This document shows, piece after piece, positions 2,571 to 41,177 of a DNA stretch of 54,488 bases. The first letter of the stretch is position 1; every line of letters begins with the position of its first letter. This DNA is from a bacterium. Lineage in GTDB: Bacteria > Babelota > Babeliae > Babelales > JAUWHS01. The translations under genes were made by a program, and so were the position numbers. The stretch spans positions 1-54,488 of the forward strand of contig JBDRFY010000080.1 of NCBI GenBank assembly GCA_043818275.1, read 5' to 3'. The notes beneath the pieces were generated by a model that was not told the DNA's origin, did not search any database, and saw only the letters and a list, made by a program, of their open reading frames with translations.

Positions 2571-3584
2571 TCAGGTTACCTGTTGGGGTGGTTTTGGTAT
2601 AACGGGTGTCGCAGGAGGAACTCCTTTCTGACCTGGTTGTGTTAATTTCTGTTCTGGCTTTGCTCTTTGATCACCAGGTTTTTCTTCTGAAGGTTTTTGA
2701 GTTGGATAAGATGAAATTGGAATCAGGCATTCAAAACTACTTTCCTTTTCTAATTTTTCATCCCAAAAAGTTATAAAAACATCAACCATTTCCGGTACAA
2801 GATTTTCTGTTTCTTTTGTATTTCCCCAAATAAATAATCTTGTTTTTTCAACCTCTTCTTTTGCAAAAACAGATTTTTTTTTAGATAAATCCCGATCACC
2901 CTGAGCCTGTCGAAGGGCTTCACTTTGGTCTGCAATATATTCAACAAATAAATTTTTTACATTGTCCACAATCAAATAAGTTTTTATATCAGATTTTTTA
3001 TCCCGCTGAATAATTGAATCATCTTCTTTAAATTTAAAATTCTCCAAATCAGTTGTCTCTCTTCTTAGTAAATTATAAACAATTTTATCTTGACGACTTT
3101 TTTCTTTATCTTTGACTAACTCATACATGACTCTGACAAGCATAACTCTTTTCTCAGAATAAATTCGTAACGCATTAGTTGTTATAAAATTTAAAGATTT
3201 AAAAAGCTCTCTTCTTTTACCTTTTATCTTTTCTTCAAAATCAGGCAAAATTTCTCCGACAAAATAATTCTTTTGGTCTTCTTTTTCTTTATCCTTATCA
3301 GCTATAGGTTTAATTGTAGAAGCTTCTTTTTTGCCCTCTTCCGGTTTCCTTCGACTAAGCTCAGGATGAACGGGTGTGTTTAAAAATGGAATAAATGAAG
3401 AACTTAAATCCCGTTCTAATTGATTAAAAAATAAACAAATTTTTCTGTTTAAAACCATTAAATTTCGCGACCTATCAATCATATTTGAAACATTACGATA
3501 TCCCTGAAGCATCCCAAGGATAACAAAACTTGAAATAGAAAGAGCTATAAGTAATTCTAAAATTGTAAAACCTTGTTTTCTCAT
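2571..3584 (-). CDS. gspJ: Type II secretion pseudopilin GspJ-like, carrying two in-frame repeat insertions
   Basis: KQG|FTILELLIAL N-methylation motif, 'QLERDL' helix, position between gspI and gspK. Confidence 0.8.
   Translation of the reverse strand: MRKQGFTILELLIALSISSFVILGMLQGYRNVSNMIDRSRNLMVLNRKICLFFNQLERDLSSSFIPFLNTPVHPELSRRKPEEGKKEASTIKPIADKDKEKEDQKNYFVGEILPDFEEKIKGKRRELFKSLNFITTNALRIYSEKRVMLVRVMYELVKDKEKSRQDKIVYNLLRRETTDLENFKFKEDDSIIQRDKKSDIKTYLIVDNVKNLFVEYIADQSEALRQAQGDRDLSKKKSVFAKEEVEKTRLFIWGNTKETENLVPEMVDVFITFWDEKLEKESSFECLIPISSYPTQKPSEEKPGDQRAKPEQKLTQPGQKGVPPATPVIPKPPQQVT
2891..2918 (+). repeat. Repeat family A copy (CCCGATCACCCTGAGCCTGTCGAAGGGC) inside gspJ; encodes ALRQAQGDR
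   Basis: GC-rich island in an AT-rich gene; shares the CCTGAGC..GTCGAAGG core with 3347-3374, 26715-26739 and 40578-40634. Confidence 0.85.
3347..3374 (-). repeat. Repeat family A copy (minus strand CCCGTTCATCCTGAGCTTAGTCGAAGGA) inside gspJ; encodes PVHPELSRR
   Basis: Nearly identical to the intergenic copy at 26715-26739; opposite orientation to the 2891 copy. Confidence 0.85.
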
Positions 3585-26326: not shown

Positions 26327-26971
26327 TATTTTTTCATTACTTATCTTTTTACAATGCAATGACCCAAATATTTTTTTTCTTTCTTGGCTTTTTAAAAAGG
26401 GAGGGGTATTGTGCTGATACCCCTCCCTTTTTAAATCCCTCCCGCAGCTTTTAATACTTGTTCTATTTAAGTCAATTATTTAAGTTTGCACCGCGGCCCT
26501 TCTGACAAATGCATTGCCGGGTCTATAATTTCAAATTAAGTTTTCAATGAAAGCAGTTTTGAAATTATGTCCGGACAACACATTTAACCGGGCAACTTGA
26601 TTTTCAACAGTCAAATTATTTTTGAATGTATCTTAAGAATGTTTTTTTGTTTTGGATTTGCAATGCAGCGCAAAAATTTCTTCTAACTGTTGTATTCCTT
26701 AATGCACGAATTAATCCTTCGACAGGCTCAGGATGAACGAATATTTGAGCCTGCCCCGAGCTAGTCGAGGGGGCAAGGGATTATTGAGTGTCGCGAAAGA
26801 GGCTAAATACAATAAACTATGCTTTTATAAAATATTAAAAGCTGCTGGGGGGTTTCCAAAAGGGGGGAATATCAGCTTTCATATTCCCCCCTTTTGAATA
26901 GCCAAAAAATATTAAGGGAATTTGAGTTTAATCTTGTAAGAAAATAAGTAATGAAGAAAATTTATTAAATT
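26320..26971. mobile_element. MITE-like composite palindromic element with ~135-bp imperfect inverted arms
   Basis: 26320-26456 aligns with the reverse complement of 26833-26971 (TTCATTACTTAT, TTGGCT, G/C hairpin, GCAGCTTTTAATA); no transposase. Confidence 0.6.
26715..26772. repeat. Inverted pair of repeat family A copies (26715-26739 and degenerate 26749-26772)
   Basis: TCCTTCGACAGGCTCAGGATGAACG followed by GCCTGCCCCGAGCTAGTCGAGGGG. Confidence 0.8.
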
Positions 26972-29042: not shown

Positions 29043-29072
29043 CCCTACTTCGCTAAAACTTCGAAGGGCTAC
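29043..29072 (-). repeat. Intergenic, diverged copy of the 30-nt hairpin element B
   Basis: Minus strand GTAGCCCTTCGAAGTTTTAGCGAAGTAGGG has the same stem/GAAG..TT.GCGAA/stem layout as 38988-39017. Confidence 0.55.
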
Positions 29073-32301: not shown

Positions 32302-32581
32302 TATAAATAGAGATCAAGTTGCTACCTTTGAAATTTATCATAAATAAACCCTGATAAGGGTTTTAGATAATAGCCTCGGGTTTTAACCCGTGGTATTGAT
32401 AAAAAATATATTGCCACCCCATTTTTTGGCGGTGGCAGAAATTAAAAAAATTCTATCACCACCATAAAATGGGGTGAATTTATATGTTTAATTATAACCA
32501 CGGGTTAAAACCCGAGGCTATTAACTGTAGCCCCTTTGGGGCAAAAATTTATAGGTAGCAACTTGGGTATAAATAGAGATC
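32302..32581. mobile_element. MITE/REPIN-like nested palindrome flanked by a 14-bp direct repeat
   Basis: Inverted repeats at 32315-32327/32553-32565, 32368-32394/32497-32523 (27 bp perfect) and 32415-32440/32451-32476; TATAAATAGAGATC at 32302-32315 and 32568-32581. Confidence 0.75.
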
Positions 32582-37177: not shown

Positions 37178-37873
37178 TTATTTCCCTGTAAAAATAAATT
37201 TTATTATAGACCAATAAATTTTAATTGAATCCTTAATTGGATTAAAATGTGAAGCCGTGTTTCCATGAAGATAAATAGTTGATATTGGCTCCTGTTCTAT
37301 TTTTATTCCCAATTTTTTAGCATTAAGCAAAACATTAATCTCATATTCGTAGCCTTCACCTCTTATTTTCACCAATTTAGATAAATATTGAATTGGTATT
37401 CCACGCAATCCTGTTTGAGTATCCTGTAACCACTGTCCGGTAATTAAATAAAAAAAATATTTTGTCACAAAATTGCCTAATTTACTTCTAAAAGGAACTT
37501 CTTTATCAAATTTCCTAACACCTAAAATCAATTCCTCTCTTTTTTCTTTTAATCTTTTTACTACTTTTAAAATATCTAAAAATGTATGTTGTCCATCATC
37601 ATCCGCCGTTACAACTCCAAAAACATCCACAACATTATTTAAACAATAATTAAATCCTGTTTTTAATGCACGGCCTTTACCTAAATTTCTGTCATGATGC
37701 AAAACAATAATATTTAAATTTTTTAACTGATCAAAAACATTTTGATACTCAACTCCACTACCATCATCAACAACAACAATTTTTAAATTCTTTTGAATTA
37801 AATTTTTAGTAAATGAAATTAAATTTTCACCTGGTTTATATGCCGGAATTATAACAATAACATCGTTATGCAT
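37178..37873 (-). CDS. GT2 polyprenol-phosphate glycosyltransferase-like (DPM1/GtrB-like)
   Basis: 'IIPAYKP', 'VVDDGS', 'NLGKGRALKTG', 'DDDGQH', 'DTQTGLRG'. Confidence 0.9.
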   Translation of the reverse strand: MHNDVIVIIPAYKPGENLISFTKNLIQKNLKIVVVDDGSGVEYQNVFDQLKNLNIIVLHHDRNLGKGRALKTGFNYCLNNVVDVFGVVTADDDGQHTFLDILKVVKRLKEKREELILGVRKFDKEVPFRSKLGNFVTKYFFYLITGQWLQDTQTGLRGIPIQYLSKLVKIRGEGYEYEINVLLNAKKLGIKIEQEPISTIYLHGNTASHFNPIKDSIKIYWSIIKFIFTGK

Positions 37874-39965
37874 TCTTTTTTCTCTCTAATTTCTCTACAA
37901 AAAAATAATCCGCGTCATTAAAAATTAATTTAAACTTATCCTTTTTAATTCTATGCAAAATATCATTTTTAATTTCATCAATTGAATCATTTGAAATTAA
38001 AAGATAACCAATCTGCGGATCATTTATTCCAATCTTGTAATCAATTAAAAAATCATCCCGCCTGTCAACGTTGCACCGAATCTCTCCTTTCTCAAGAGAA
38101 AACCGTCTCAAACAATGCGGAATATTTTTTAAAGGTTCAATTTTATCTAAAATATAAGTTGTTAATAATTTTTTATCCGGTGTTATTAAATTTTTATATT
38201 CAAGCAGCAACCTGTTTAATTTTTCGTTATCCTTTTTCAATTGAAAATCCTGTTGTTGCAAACGCAAATAATTCAAAGGATATTTAAAATTAATAAAAAT
38301 AATAAAGGCAATAACCGGCAAAGCTATAACTGAAATCTTCACATATTTAAAAAGCGCAAAAAACTTTAAAAAATAATCTTTTTTAAAATACAAAAATCGT
38401 TCAAATCCAATACCTAAACAAAGACCATAAATTGGAATTGCTACAGAATAATTTCGAAAATCATAACAAAGAAAAAAGCTCCAAATTAAAGAATATGGAA
38501 TTAAAAAAAATAAAAATAAATATCTCCAGTTTCTATCGAACAAAGAAGATAAAAGTAACGCTAAATAAAGCAATCCAGCCAAAACACCAACAATAAAATG
38601 AACAAGTTTATTATGAATAACATTAATGAAAAAAACATTGTAACTTAAAAAAGTTTTAATTGCGTATAATAATCTAGGTAATAAATGCTCTCTTTCATAC
38701 AAAGCAGCCTGCTCGACAACCGCATTAACCTCTGATCCCTGAAATTTATGCGCATATAAATAAAACGGCAAAACCAAAGCTAAAAAGCTGACTAAATAAA
38801 AAACAATTAACGGCTGTAAATATTCCTTTGTAAAAATATCTTTACGCTTTTTAAAAATTAAAAAATAGAAAAGAATTGGATAGATTAAAAAAACATACAA
38901 ACCAGCCTGTTTAATCAAGCAAGAACCAAAAACAAAAATTATTCCGAAAAACAAGTATTGTTTTATATTCCCACCCCGTTCGTCCTGCGTGTCCATCGAA
39001 GCCTTGGCGAAGATTGAAGGAGCCCGGCAAAGTGCCGCCATGTGGCGGTGCGACGACGGGCGTCTCGAAGGATCATCAACAAAATCACCCGCCAACAACA
39101 AACAATAAATTGATAAAAATGACATAAAAGCAACTGGAACATCAACTAATCCACTAGTCATGCCCCAACCAATCGCGTTTTTTAAATAAAGAGTCGTAGT
39201 AATTACCCCTAAAAAATAGCCAATAGATTTTTTTCTCAATCCCAAATCAAACATTAAAAGCAAAAGAAACAAAGAAAAAAGAGGCATTATCGTTTTTGGA
39301 AAATATTGAATTGGTTCTCCAATAAATTTATAAAAAATTGACCAATTCGCAGGAATTAATTGTGGGTAATGAAGAGTTGAAACCGGAAAATAATTATTAA
39401 AAAAATCAAGAGCCCATTTGTTCCATGAAACAATTGAATCATGATCAGTAAAAACATTAAAACTTGTAAAATTAGAAACAAAAAGAACAAAAACCCAATA
39501 AATACAAATTAGAGAAGAAAAAAATGTTACAAAATTTAAAATCCAGGAATTTTTGCCTGATAAATTATAGGTCGAATCAAAAATAAAACTTGAAACCTGT
39601 TTTCTAACTTTTTTAAAATTTTTATTTAAAGCATCTAATAAATTTTGATTAAAAAATAAATATGTATTTTTACCTTGAAGATAAATAAAGAGTAAAATCT
39701 CCAAAAAAAACATAGAAAACATTACAGATCGTGTATAAAAAGAAAAAAGAGCCAACGCAGAAACAAACAAATAATTAATTATCAAACTAAGAGCGAAAGA
39801 GAATATTATAATTTGTAAAAAATTTAAATTATCAACCCTATTTTTGATCCCACTAAATTTTTTCGCAAAACCAGATGTATCAAGAACACGATTAAATATT
39901 TTTAAAAATAAGAATCCAGGTAAAAAAACAACCTGAATAAACGCTGCCAAGCCAAGCAGAATCAT
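37866..39965 (-). CDS. Multi-pass membrane protein, probable GT-C fold glycosyltransferase, with an in-frame repeat insertion
   Basis: Many TM helices, 'D....W', 'YPQL.P', 'IKQAG'; adjacent to a polyprenol-P GT2 (donor/acceptor pair logic). Confidence 0.7.
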   Translation of the reverse strand: MILLGLAAFIQVVFLPGFLFLKIFNRVLDTSGFAKKFSGIKNRVDNLNFLQIIIFSFALSLIINYLFVSALALFSFYTRSVMFSMFFLEILLFIYLQGKNTYLFFNQNLLDALNKNFKKVRKQVSSFIFDSTYNLSGKNSWILNFVTFFSSLICIYWVFVLFVSNFTSFNVFTDHDSIVSWNKWALDFFNNYFPVSTLHYPQLIPANWSIFYKFIGEPIQYFPKTIMPLFSLFLLLLMFDLGLRKKSIGYFLGVITTTLYLKNAIGWGMTSGLVDVPVAFMSFLSIYCLLLAGDFVDDPSRRPSSHRHMAALCRAPSIFAKASMDTQDERGGNIKQYLFFGIIFVFGSCLIKQAGLYVFLIYPILFYFLIFKKRKDIFTKEYLQPLIVFYLVSFLALVLPFYLYAHKFQGSEVNAVVEQAALYEREHLLPRLLYAIKTFLSYNVFFINVIHNKLVHFIVGVLAGLLYLALLLSSLFDRNWRYLFLFFLIPYSLIWSFFLCYDFRNYSVAIPIYGLCLGIGFERFLYFKKDYFLKFFALFKYVKISVIALPVIAFIIFINFKYPLNYLRLQQQDFQLKKDNEKLNRLLLEYKNLITPDKKLLTTYILDKIEPLKNIPHCLRRFSLEKGEIRCNVDRRDDFLIDYKIGINDPQIGYLLISNDSIDEIKNDILHRIKKDKFKLIFNDADYFFVEKLERKKNA
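38974..39072 (+). repeat. Nested repeat: family A-related host, 30-nt element B (38988-39017) and an inner GCCGCCATGTGGCGGT hairpin; in frame in the membrane gene
   Basis: CCGTTCGTCCTG|CGTGTCCATCGAAGCCTTGGCGAAGATTGA|AGGAGCCCGGC..CGGGCGTCTCGAAGGA. Confidence 0.85.
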
Positions 39966-39983
39966 CTCTCTCCTTTTTATGCG

Positions 39984-41177
39984 CTAAGGATGAATATATT
40001 TTTCTTCATTACTCCAACAACGCCTAATTGGTCCAAATTCATCAATAATCTTTATAATTTGATAAACATAATCGTTAGTCGTTCTATCTTGCGAAATTTT
40101 AAAACCTTTTTCAATTAAATTATTTCTTAAATTTTCATTCTCAAATAATTCCTTTATTTGTTCAGCTAATTCAGTTTCATTTTTAGGATCAAAAAATAAT
40201 GCCGCGTCTTTTAATTGTAATTTCATACCAAAAACATCTGCTGCTATCACCGGACATTTTAAAGAAAACGCTTCAAGTGGTGGAATATTATTCGGTCCAA
40301 AAAATGATGGGAAAACTAACGCAAAAGCATTTTGATATAAACTAATTAATTCTTCAATTTCAACAAACCCCAAAAAATGGATTTGCTTTTCTAACCCTAA
40401 TTCTTTTGATTTTTGTTTTATAAAATTCAGGTTTCCTTTATCTGAACCGGTAAAAACAATATCAAAATTAAGATTGTATTTTTCTTTTAAAATTTTTACT
40501 GCCAATAAAATTAAAATATGATTTTTGTGTGGCCAAAATTGGGCGGGATAGAAAAGATATTCGTTTTTGATATTGCACCCTTCGACTTCGCTCCAGCCGT
40601 CGCCAAGGCTATGGCCGACAGGCAGGGCGAGCGGAGAATTGGGTTTATAATCAGGCGTTGGAAATTCAATTGTTTTAATTCGAAAATCCGGAATACCATA
40701 AAAAAGTTTTATTTCTTCTTTGCCTGCATCATTTCCAGTTACAACATAAGAAGCGCGTGGAATTATATTTTTATAATAATTTTCACGATTTTCGAACAAC
40801 GCACCTGTAACACTAACTTCAGGAAAATATGGTTGCAACCTGTGTTGCAAATCCCAAACCGTATAAATAAATGGAACATCTACAAATTGATACGCAGGAG
40901 TCAAAAACCACATTAATTCAATTTTATATCTGTTTGCTGCTTCATTTAAAAAACTTGTTTGGACTTTTTTTATTTTTAACCGATTAAAAATTTTTTGAAA
41001 AAAACTTTTTTGAAACAACAATAATTGTTTGAATTCTTTTTTTAATTTTTCGTCATAAAAAATAATGAATTCATGCGAACTTTTAACATTTTTTAAACAA
41101 CCAAGAATTGATTGTTCAAATGTATAACCCCCGCCAGATTCTGGAGAATTTTGACCTATGTAAACACCAACGCGCAT
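39984..41177 (-). CDS. Glycosyltransferase family 4 (group 1) with an in-frame repeat insertion
   Basis: 'TVWDLQHR', 'YPAQFWPHKNH', 'ALVFPSFFGP.NIPPLEAF'. Confidence 0.92.
   Translation of the reverse strand: MRVGVYIGQNSPESGGGYTFEQSILGCLKNVKSSHEFIIFYDEKLKKEFKQLLLFQKSFFQKIFNRLKIKKVQTSFLNEAANRYKIELMWFLTPAYQFVDVPFIYTVWDLQHRLQPYFPEVSVTGALFENRENYYKNIIPRASYVVTGNDAGKEEIKLFYGIPDFRIKTIEFPTPDYKPNSPLALPVGHSLGDGWSEVEGCNIKNEYLFYPAQFWPHKNHILILLAVKILKEKYNLNFDIVFTGSDKGNLNFIKQKSKELGLEKQIHFLGFVEIEELISLYQNAFALVFPSFFGPNNIPPLEAFSLKCPVIAADVFGMKLQLKDAALFFDPKNETELAEQIKELFENENLRNNLIEKGFKISQDRTTNDYVYQIIKIIDEFGPIRRCWSNEEKYIHP
40578..40634 (-). repeat. Nested repeat: 27-nt family A host plus 30-nt element B (40593-40622), 57 nt in frame
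   Basis: Minus strand CCGCTCGCCCTG|CCTGTCGGCCATAGCCTTGGCGACGGCTGG|AGCGAAGTCGAAGGG encodes PLALPVGHSLGDGWSEVEG. Confidence 0.88.

Follow-up and report, generated by a model that had tools for sequence, protein, structure and literature searches.

In the Ssn system, a single-domain GIY-YIG gene of <100 aa (SsnA, CDD cd10448) belongs with an oriented, tagged hairpin repeat of ~30 nt (NTS/SRM). Binding of SsnA is restricted to one strand of this hairpin, and cleavage takes place a few bases away on its 5′ side; SsnA mutants at Y6, Y17, and E64 were described, and in the text available to us the authors raised a mobile-element origin of the repeat (Chenal et al., 2025, PMC11893778). SsnA showed cleavage only, not movement. 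Other short tagged palindromes outside the GTAG class are so far without a mobiliser, and one was reported to be lacking for the CGTC repeats among the repetitive extragenic palindromes (REPs; PMC3733652, as far as its available text goes). Here we analyzed a stretch of 54,488 nucleotides (the window; contig JBDRFY010000080.1, or C80, of assembly GCA_043818275.1, order Babelales) from a genome of 1.33 Mb with 31% GC, in which a 30-nt hairpin element was found twice inside another, GC-rich repeat (repeat A). We think it probable that the inserts are gene-less, REP-like hairpin copies and that a small, stand-alone nuclease of the GIY-YIG type moves them in trans in the form of single-stranded DNA.

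The two window inserts were 30 nt each and 20/30 identical; each was flanked by the CCTG and the AG of repeat A with no duplication, and both faced the same way with respect to their host. This confirmed the coordinates and the identity given in an earlier note on the window. Copy 1 (38988..39017, + strand) was composed of a CNTG tag (CGTG), a 6-bp outer stem, a GAA/GAA internal loop and a GC-CTTG-GC inner hairpin, and copy 2 (40593..40622, − strand) carried the tag CCTG. The first host (+ strand) consisted of a 5′ arm ending in CCTG (38974..38987) and a 3′ part (39018..39072) of the subtype AGGAG ... CGTCTCGAAGGA; the second (− strand) had a 5′ arm ending in CCTG (40623..40634) and a 3′ part at 40578..40592. 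The 3′ halves of the hosts did differ, as had been noted, but that of the first host itself held a second hairpin of the same family, a long-loop form of 38 nt (39023..39060, + strand) captured in the host's loop. The 11-nt core of the 30-mer occurred exactly twice in the window, and a general repeat search of the window surfaced the pair only as inverted repeat I7.

The 30-mer pattern exceeds chance by far. Of 316 core matches in the genome, 69 formed 5 or 6 of the 6 stem pairs, compared with 9, 5, and 3 in three shuffles, and the full 6/6 stem was present in 41 matches (0, 1, and 0 in the shuffles). A strict 26-nt pattern matched 81 of the 121 genomes of the order, and its reversed control matched none. 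A flexible search of the genome gave 139 hairpin rows, some of which were chance long-loop matches; 77 of them had CNTG directly 5′ of the stem and are called tagged copies below. On the tagged strand, the tag was followed by a 6-bp stem and a GAA/GAA-type internal loop, beyond which lay either an inner stem with a short loop or a longer inner hairpin. The inner loop was TTTA in 35/62 and CTTG in 19/62 hairpins, the stem sequences varied with compensation, and many inserts combined a left arm of one type with a right arm of another. In a count that left the tag unconstrained, CNTG stood 5′ of 46 of the 69 26-nt hairpins of this genome and GTAG of one. Pairing was asymmetric between the strands. 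The ratio of G-T to A-C pairs on the tagged strand was 26:1 in this genome, in a set that was filtered on pairing and is therefore biased, and 32:7 and 25:7 in outside sets that had no pairing filter.

A fixed length of 30 nt and an intrinsic preservation of the reading frame, both proposed in the earlier note, were not upheld. The tagged copies in this genome spanned 29–66 nt. All 19 copies within open reading frames (ORFs) were multiples of three, and none of the 23 of 77 copies with other lengths lay in an ORF (p 4e-4, for copies that are not independent of each other). Frame preservation is thus the result of selection and not a property of the element, because the copies of other lengths exist outside ORFs.

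Repeat A was one target among many. By script class, the 77 tagged copies were distributed over repeat A or related CGTC-type hosts (25), tRNA or tmRNA ends (16 rows, one locus being counted as two), a second repeat (7), a RAYT/Y1-flanking palindrome (6), the hairpin itself (4), another palindrome (4), and other places (15). A wider rule gave 27 filled repeat A hosts with 23 different inserts, all at one G^A bond, and 50 of the 77 tagged copies were not in repeat A. The genome also contained 52 short and 16 CGTC-type empty hosts. In the window, the three empty hosts known from the earlier note were found again, with CCTG^AG at 2903/2904 (2891..2917, + strand) and at 3362/3361 (3347..3374, − strand), both within ORF 2571-3584, and with an intergenic bond at 26729^26728 (26715..26742, − strand). 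A fourth, of the variant CCCG^AG with the bond at 26758^26759 (26747..26773, + strand), was added, and it pairs with the host at 26715..26742; the ends of all four are approximate. A strict nested pattern matched 8 of the 121 genomes of the order, in seven families including its own, and its control gave zero matches. Recurrence at the host bond was seen both in this genome and in seven others, one from the same family and six from other families, and 13 of the 14 outside nested copies inspected lay in a recognisable repeat A. By inspection, the site of self-insertion was followed by AGC, the same AGC as after the repeat A bond. This suggested that nesting in repeat A reflects a weak motif within a structured target and not a dedicated partnership.

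Both window composites (repeat A plus the 30-mer) were in frame within ORFs. Composite 1 lay in a gene for a 699-aa hydrophobic protein (37866..39965, − strand, read from the strand opposite to the composite; no Pfam match), whose same-genus ortholog was ~111 nt shorter at the composite site; an ortholog of this protein (P0002) was found in one of the five genomes tried. Composite 2 lay in a GT1 glycosyltransferase gene (39984..41177, − strand; PF00534), and two same-order orthologs with 55–56% identity showed a 14-residue gap at the insert; the search of the same-genus genome gave no ortholog of this gene. For the empty and filled forms at orthologous sites, which the earlier note had proposed to look for, the outcome was divided: the orthologs lacked the whole composite, not the 30-mer alone, at both window loci, and no orthologous pair with the host present and the 30-mer absent was found. 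No joint across either window insert was seen in the contigs of four DNA sequencing runs, of which the coverage was fragmentary. These results bear on another explanation, in which one or a few ancient insertions created a fixed composite that was spread by the GIY-YIG nuclease linked to repeat A (clade 1, see below), the insert being diversified by gene conversion with free hairpins. The missing composites would be expected from such a history, and so would the four insert sequences present twice among the 27 filled hosts, the mixed left and right arm types, as a crossover in the core would give, and the abundance of the nested form in only 2 of the 121 genomes (12 and 7 strict matches). However, the filled hosts fell into several subtypes that differed in their 3′ halves, and most of these subtypes were also seen empty; the same bond was used in six other families and at 4 of 225 sites outside the order; and the 30-mer kept the same boundaries at unrelated targets and was also seen by itself in genes. 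We regard a fixed composite as unlikely.

Outside the order, the exact 30-mer pattern was found in at least 119 metagenome stretches and 115 viral stretches, and the metagenome and viral stretches among the matches listed provided 225 distinct sites with enough flank. The search patterns fixed C, T, and G of the tag and a YTTR loop, so the outside counts are uninformative on these features. Repeat A at CCTG^AG accounted for the 4 sites mentioned above and the other 221 were elsewhere, which, like the copies outside repeat A in this genome, spoke against the dedicated target repeat of the earlier note. The ends of the 30-mer were the same at hundreds of unrelated sites, viral contigs included. 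The flanks favored C, C, G, G before the cut and A/T, G after it; [CG][GT][AG]^ was present at 89 of the 225 sites, against a background of 11%, and the rejoined flanks formed at least 8 spanning pairs in 35% of the sites vs. 19% after permutation. The target is therefore a weak motif of the type CCGG^WG that often lies within a hairpin. Where the base before the cut was A, the element ended in A in 44 of 50 cases; for G the figure was 48 of 127. With this tie of the last base and the flank preferences, the target looks like the element's own right end. A right arm copied from the target was considered and rejected; only the last base matched beyond permutation (123 vs. 86 of 225), and positions 4–7 did not.

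There was no general target-site duplication at the 225 outside sites, in agreement with the small, structure-conserved element without duplication that had been described for the window. No excess was found at 2, 4, or 5 nt, and the counts at 3 nt (8 vs. 3.9), 6 nt (2), and 7 nt (5) were read as heptamer tandem repeats. Six outside copies (L342, L387, L389, L391, L399, and L449) lay within such repeats, which mimic a target duplication of 7 nt.

The hairpin stood directly at the CCA end of 21 of the 44 ARAGORN tRNA calls of this genome and of the tmRNA, with fully compensatory stems (counted as search rows). At the 3′ ends of tRNAs the tagged strand was antisense to the tRNA; three tRNA-Ser genes had the hairpin at the 5′ end, and many tRNAs had none. 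A second half copy of the hairpin often followed the tag at tRNA ends (L593–L622), frequently ending in the inner loop. Hairpins were also observed behind CCA-like ends in L310 (240–300) and L309 (350–420), where ARAGORN and Rfam found no tRNA or other RNA; these loci might represent the remains of a tRNA or an RNA that has escaped recognition. In searches of eight loci with Rfam, only tRNA exceeded the gathering score, and in the window nothing reached it.

Lone hairpin copies were located within uvrC, dnaK, glmS, and alaS, names that we assume from recognition of the protein sequences (for uvrC, beyond its GIY-YIG match). In DnaK, the lone copy corresponded to 10 additional residues relative to all four aligned orthologs; the same-genus dnaK match ended before the insert site. 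Compared with the same-genus genome, the net changes were +3 aa in UvrC, 0 aa in AlaRS, and +13 aa in GlmS. The junctions are thus not always clean insertions. Copies occurred on either strand of genes. Here another explanation must be weighed, namely that the hairpins are domesticated signals, either nuclease recognition marks with an influence on recombination, a role demonstrated for NTS/SsnA, or tRNA trailer structures, spread by host recombination and slippage and not by transposition. The many hairpins with compensatory stems at CCA ends would suit such a role, the junctions of uvrC and alaS, being of a replacement type, point to repair and not to clean strand transfer, and SsnA acts in transformation, its mobility being only hypothesised in the available text (PMC11893778). 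Domesticated signals are difficult to reconcile with ends that are sharp and do not differ among hundreds of unrelated sites, some of them on viral contigs, with copies on either strand of genes, with the many tRNAs that lack a hairpin, with 40 of 121 genomes that had no strict match, and with the antisense position of the tagged strand at tRNA 3′ ends. This origin is distinctly improbable in our judgment.

The profile matches in the genome comprised seven of PF01541, six of PF01797 and one of DUF559, the last within a 675-aa frame. Two clades of GIY-YIG genes were relevant. Clade 2 was represented by four genes of 80–81 aa that stood behind tRNA genes with a hairpin upstream; their proteins exceeded the PF01541 cut-off, and Y5, Y17, R27, H31, and E63 were invariant in all four, to be compared with Y6, Y17, and E64 of the SsnA mutants. 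Clade 1 was represented by two genes of 91–97 aa that were bracketed by inverted repeat A. Among 110 clade-2 loci (30 from the order and 80 from many phyla), the hairpin was upstream of 90 and downstream of 4, repeat A was found at one, and a same-strand tRNA was upstream of 84 genes. Among 30 clade-1 loci, repeat A was on at least one side of 26 and on both sides of 16 under a looser rule that was written after those flanks were inspected (11 upstream and 13 downstream under the stricter first rule); the hairpin was upstream of 6, and no tRNA was near any of the 30. In a tree of 65 proteins over 85 columns, which sampled 36 of the 110 clade-2 loci, 27 of the 30 clade-1 loci and two NTS-adjacent proteins, clade 2 formed its own branch with a support of 100/100. 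The best PDB matches of clade 2, both weak, were Slx1 and UPF0213 (1ZG2), and no NCBIfam family was over the cut-off for the clade-2 protein; clade 1 matched UPF0213 structures (E 1e-17).

The linkage was also seen by genome. Element and clade-2 gene occurred together in 64 of the 121 genomes, the gene alone in 9, the element alone in 17, and neither in 31, an odds ratio (OR) of 13 among kin that are not independent and genomes that are incomplete; the corresponding OR for clade 1 was 4.8. All eight nested-form genomes had a clade-2 match, one of them weak, and three had no Y1 match. The hairpin is thus linked to one GIY-YIG clade both physically and by genome, and repeat A to a second clade.

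Near clade-1 genes (L136–L165), repeat A showed an exchangeable loop, frequently occupied by the 26-nt hairpin or another small palindrome that lacked the CNTG tag. Downstream of some clade-2 genes (L028, L043, L057, L058, and L106), part of the upstream hairpin module recurred as a direct repeat, hinting at how the gene itself moves.

The earlier note had compared the insertion with HUH/Y1 chemistry, and transposition of the 30-mer to a fixed motif by a Y1/HUH enzyme (IS200/IS605 or RAYT) would account for the lack of target duplication and for the single-strand hairpin anatomy. The genome had six Y1 matches, and the tie between the base 5′ of the insertion and the last base of the element resembles guide-target pairing. 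However, the Y1 genes at the six loci read carried their own, unrelated palindromes, and the hairpin near one of them was an insert missing from the paralog. Nor did element and Y1 co-occur: 32 genomes had both, 11 Y1 only, 49 the element only, and 29 neither (OR 1.7, p 0.23, with PF01797 pooling IS200 and RAYT). The 49 are among 81 element-positive genomes, and 14 genomes with at least five copies were without a Y1 match. The nuclease co-occurrence proposed as a check was therefore found for GIY-YIG clade 2 and not for Y1, and we consider movement by a Y1 enzyme very improbable.

Two side observations concern Y1-associated sequences. The paralogous Y1 upstream regions L007 and L008 (G000 C59, C60) differed by 56 nt, a back-to-back pair of hairpins inserted into a small palindrome at its loop. 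A long inverted repeat in the window (32358-32533) was built of palindromes that elsewhere flank RAYT-type Y1 genes; it was the empty version of a site that the hairpin fills, with one extra base, in six other copies.

Mobilisation by the clade-2 nuclease, as we infer it from the linkage and by analogy, would proceed as follows. The clade-2 protein would bind the hairpin on the tagged strand as single-stranded DNA and, on the example of SsnA, cleave at a position 4 nt 5′ of the stem. The released piece might then be joined at sites like its own right end (weak CCGG^WG) that are exposed in hairpins. Host repair enzymes would probably take part in the joining, and their action would explain why some junctions carry deletions. 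Repeat A offers one suitable bond (CCTG^AG), hence the apparent site specificity. Filled composites would then probably also spread as units with repeat A under the clade-1 nuclease.

Several points weigh against mobilisation by the clade-2 nuclease. The absence of whole composites from orthologs, without a host-only counterpart, and the uneven net changes in UvrC, AlaRS, and GlmS have been described above. The clade-2 gene had hairpins on a single side and so is not bracketed by them as by transposon ends. The target motif was weak, 17 of the 81 element-positive genomes had no clade-2 match, and the co-occurrence p-values overstate the association because kin are not independent. Nearest-neighbor DNA folding of the linear forms showed no preference for the tagged strand, in models without tandem G-A and miniloop terms. 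Finally, we know of no GIY-YIG enzyme that catalyses strand transfer.

A bolder form of the proposal, which we put forward as speculative and rather unlikely, is that the mobile form of the 30-mer is a single-stranded DNA dumbbell, closed covalently, whose excision and re-insertion the 80-residue GIY-YIG nuclease assists. A bond between the last and first bases of the 30-mer would turn the CNTG tag into a tetraloop that closes the stem, with CTTG or TTTA closing the other end. CTTG, CCTG, and TTTA form type II DNA tetraloops, as do CATG and CGTG in minidumbbells, according to the text available (PMC9975016). In unconstrained counts, CNTG was present at the 46 of 69 hairpins of this genome given above and, in other genomes, at 35 of 49 hairpins that were not on the gene side, and the first C was lacking in 20 of 22 gene-side hairpins. 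Free copies thus keep the loop-closing C and G and gene-side copies do not, which speaks for a dumbbell, as does the resemblance of the target to the element's own right end. A head-to-tail junction was found in 39 of 201 related genomes, and its reversed control in 3. Among 32 junction contexts inspected, six had a full unit upstream, two of these being near-identical 34-nt tandems; most of the others, against the dumbbell, lay at tRNA ends and had no more than the right half of a second copy. Repeated insertion at the right end of an older copy explains head-to-tail junctions too, and the folding models gave the circular form little or no stability. If true, the dumbbell would be the smallest mobile element proposed, and a closed-dumbbell intermediate would be a transposition route without known precedent at such a size.

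Further repeats were observed in the genome. An untagged 26-nt hairpin of the same family was located within another composite repeat of the window (29043..29068, − strand). The window ORF 2571-3584 and G000 C21:3805-5784 were single ORFs with two and three in-frame repeat copies, respectively. A near-identical composite of ~170 nt, made of several nested hairpins, was present in at least six copies (G000 C12, C41, C57, C72, and C86 near contig ends; L009 240–410). It was inverted at both ends of a 5.4-kb segment, which starts with a gene that we take to be Fic-like.

Among known repeats, the Rickettsia palindromic elements (RPEs) are similar in being palindromic repeats that are translated in frame in housekeeping genes of a small-genome bacterium (PMC3733652, within the text available). 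In both cases in-frame insertions in conserved genes are absent from orthologs; here the 19 ORF copies were all multiples of three, and absence from orthologs was seen for DnaK and both window genes. By their descriptions, the present element differs from RPEs in that it is much shorter (10 aa), occurs in many phyla and on viral contigs and has a candidate mobiliser. It also differs from miniature inverted-repeat transposable elements in its asymmetric ends, with a tag on one side, and in the lack of target duplication. The closest solved structures of the clade-1 nuclease, which is flanked by repeat A, are those of the stand-alone GIY-YIG proteins of UPF0213 (PDB 1ZG2, 1YWL). The literature searched, with subscription journals largely outside it, contained no description of flanking inverted repeats for UPF0213 or of the hairpin family and its nuclease clade.

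The resemblance to REPs is closer. CGTC- and GTAG-tagged REPs (Di Nocera et al., 2013, PMC3733652, in the parts available) and REPINs are likewise tagged stem-loops of 20–40 nt with dimers, nesting and intragenic copies, the host repeat A resembles a CGTC-type REP, and target-site duplication is absent in REP/REPIN-RAYT systems too. In contrast to these, the tag of the hairpin is neither GTAG nor CGTC, there is no link to RAYT, and the hairpin is not the RAYT's own REP. Single 30-nt units occur alone, whereas the mobile unit of a REPIN is a doublet (PMC3337134, text available in part).

Two further GIY-YIG clades, each with its own hairpin, are described here, and one of the hairpins nests at a defined bond of the other. 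The question whether small GIY-YIG proteins move their repeats thereby becomes testable at the bench with an 80-aa protein and a 30-nt oligonucleotide. Such proteins could add single-stranded DNA nucleases of new specificity, and the element explains a common source of 10-residue insertions in the housekeeping proteins of uncultured bacteria. New here are the element boundaries, the target rule and the hypothesis of a closed 30-nt dumbbell.

The nearest relative in function is the Ssn/NTS pair, with which the present system shares the small single-domain nuclease gene and a tagged hairpin repeat that is strand-specific and dispersed through the genome. Against a proxy for Ssn, two GIY-YIG proteins found next to NTS motifs among 80 viral loci (SsnA itself was not compared), three of the four clade-2 proteins gave best E values of 6e-7 to 4e-5 and the fourth no match, where PMC11893778 asks for E < 1e-10 as a sign of homology to SsnA. 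Repeat A may fall under the SRM motif given in the supplements of that paper, and the main text, so far as available, has no mention of tRNA. Unlike Ssn/NTS, the nuclease belongs to a different GIY-YIG clade, on a branch apart from the two NTS-adjacent proteins; the tag is CNTG and not CGTC, and an internal GAA/GAA loop is present. The gene is not flanked on both sides but has hairpins upstream only (90/110 vs. 4/110 downstream) and stands behind tRNA genes, in-frame insertion in genes is frequent, and the nesting in other repeats is precise. The system thus works like the Ssn/NTS pair but stands outside it by proxy homology, by two-sided flanking and by its tag.

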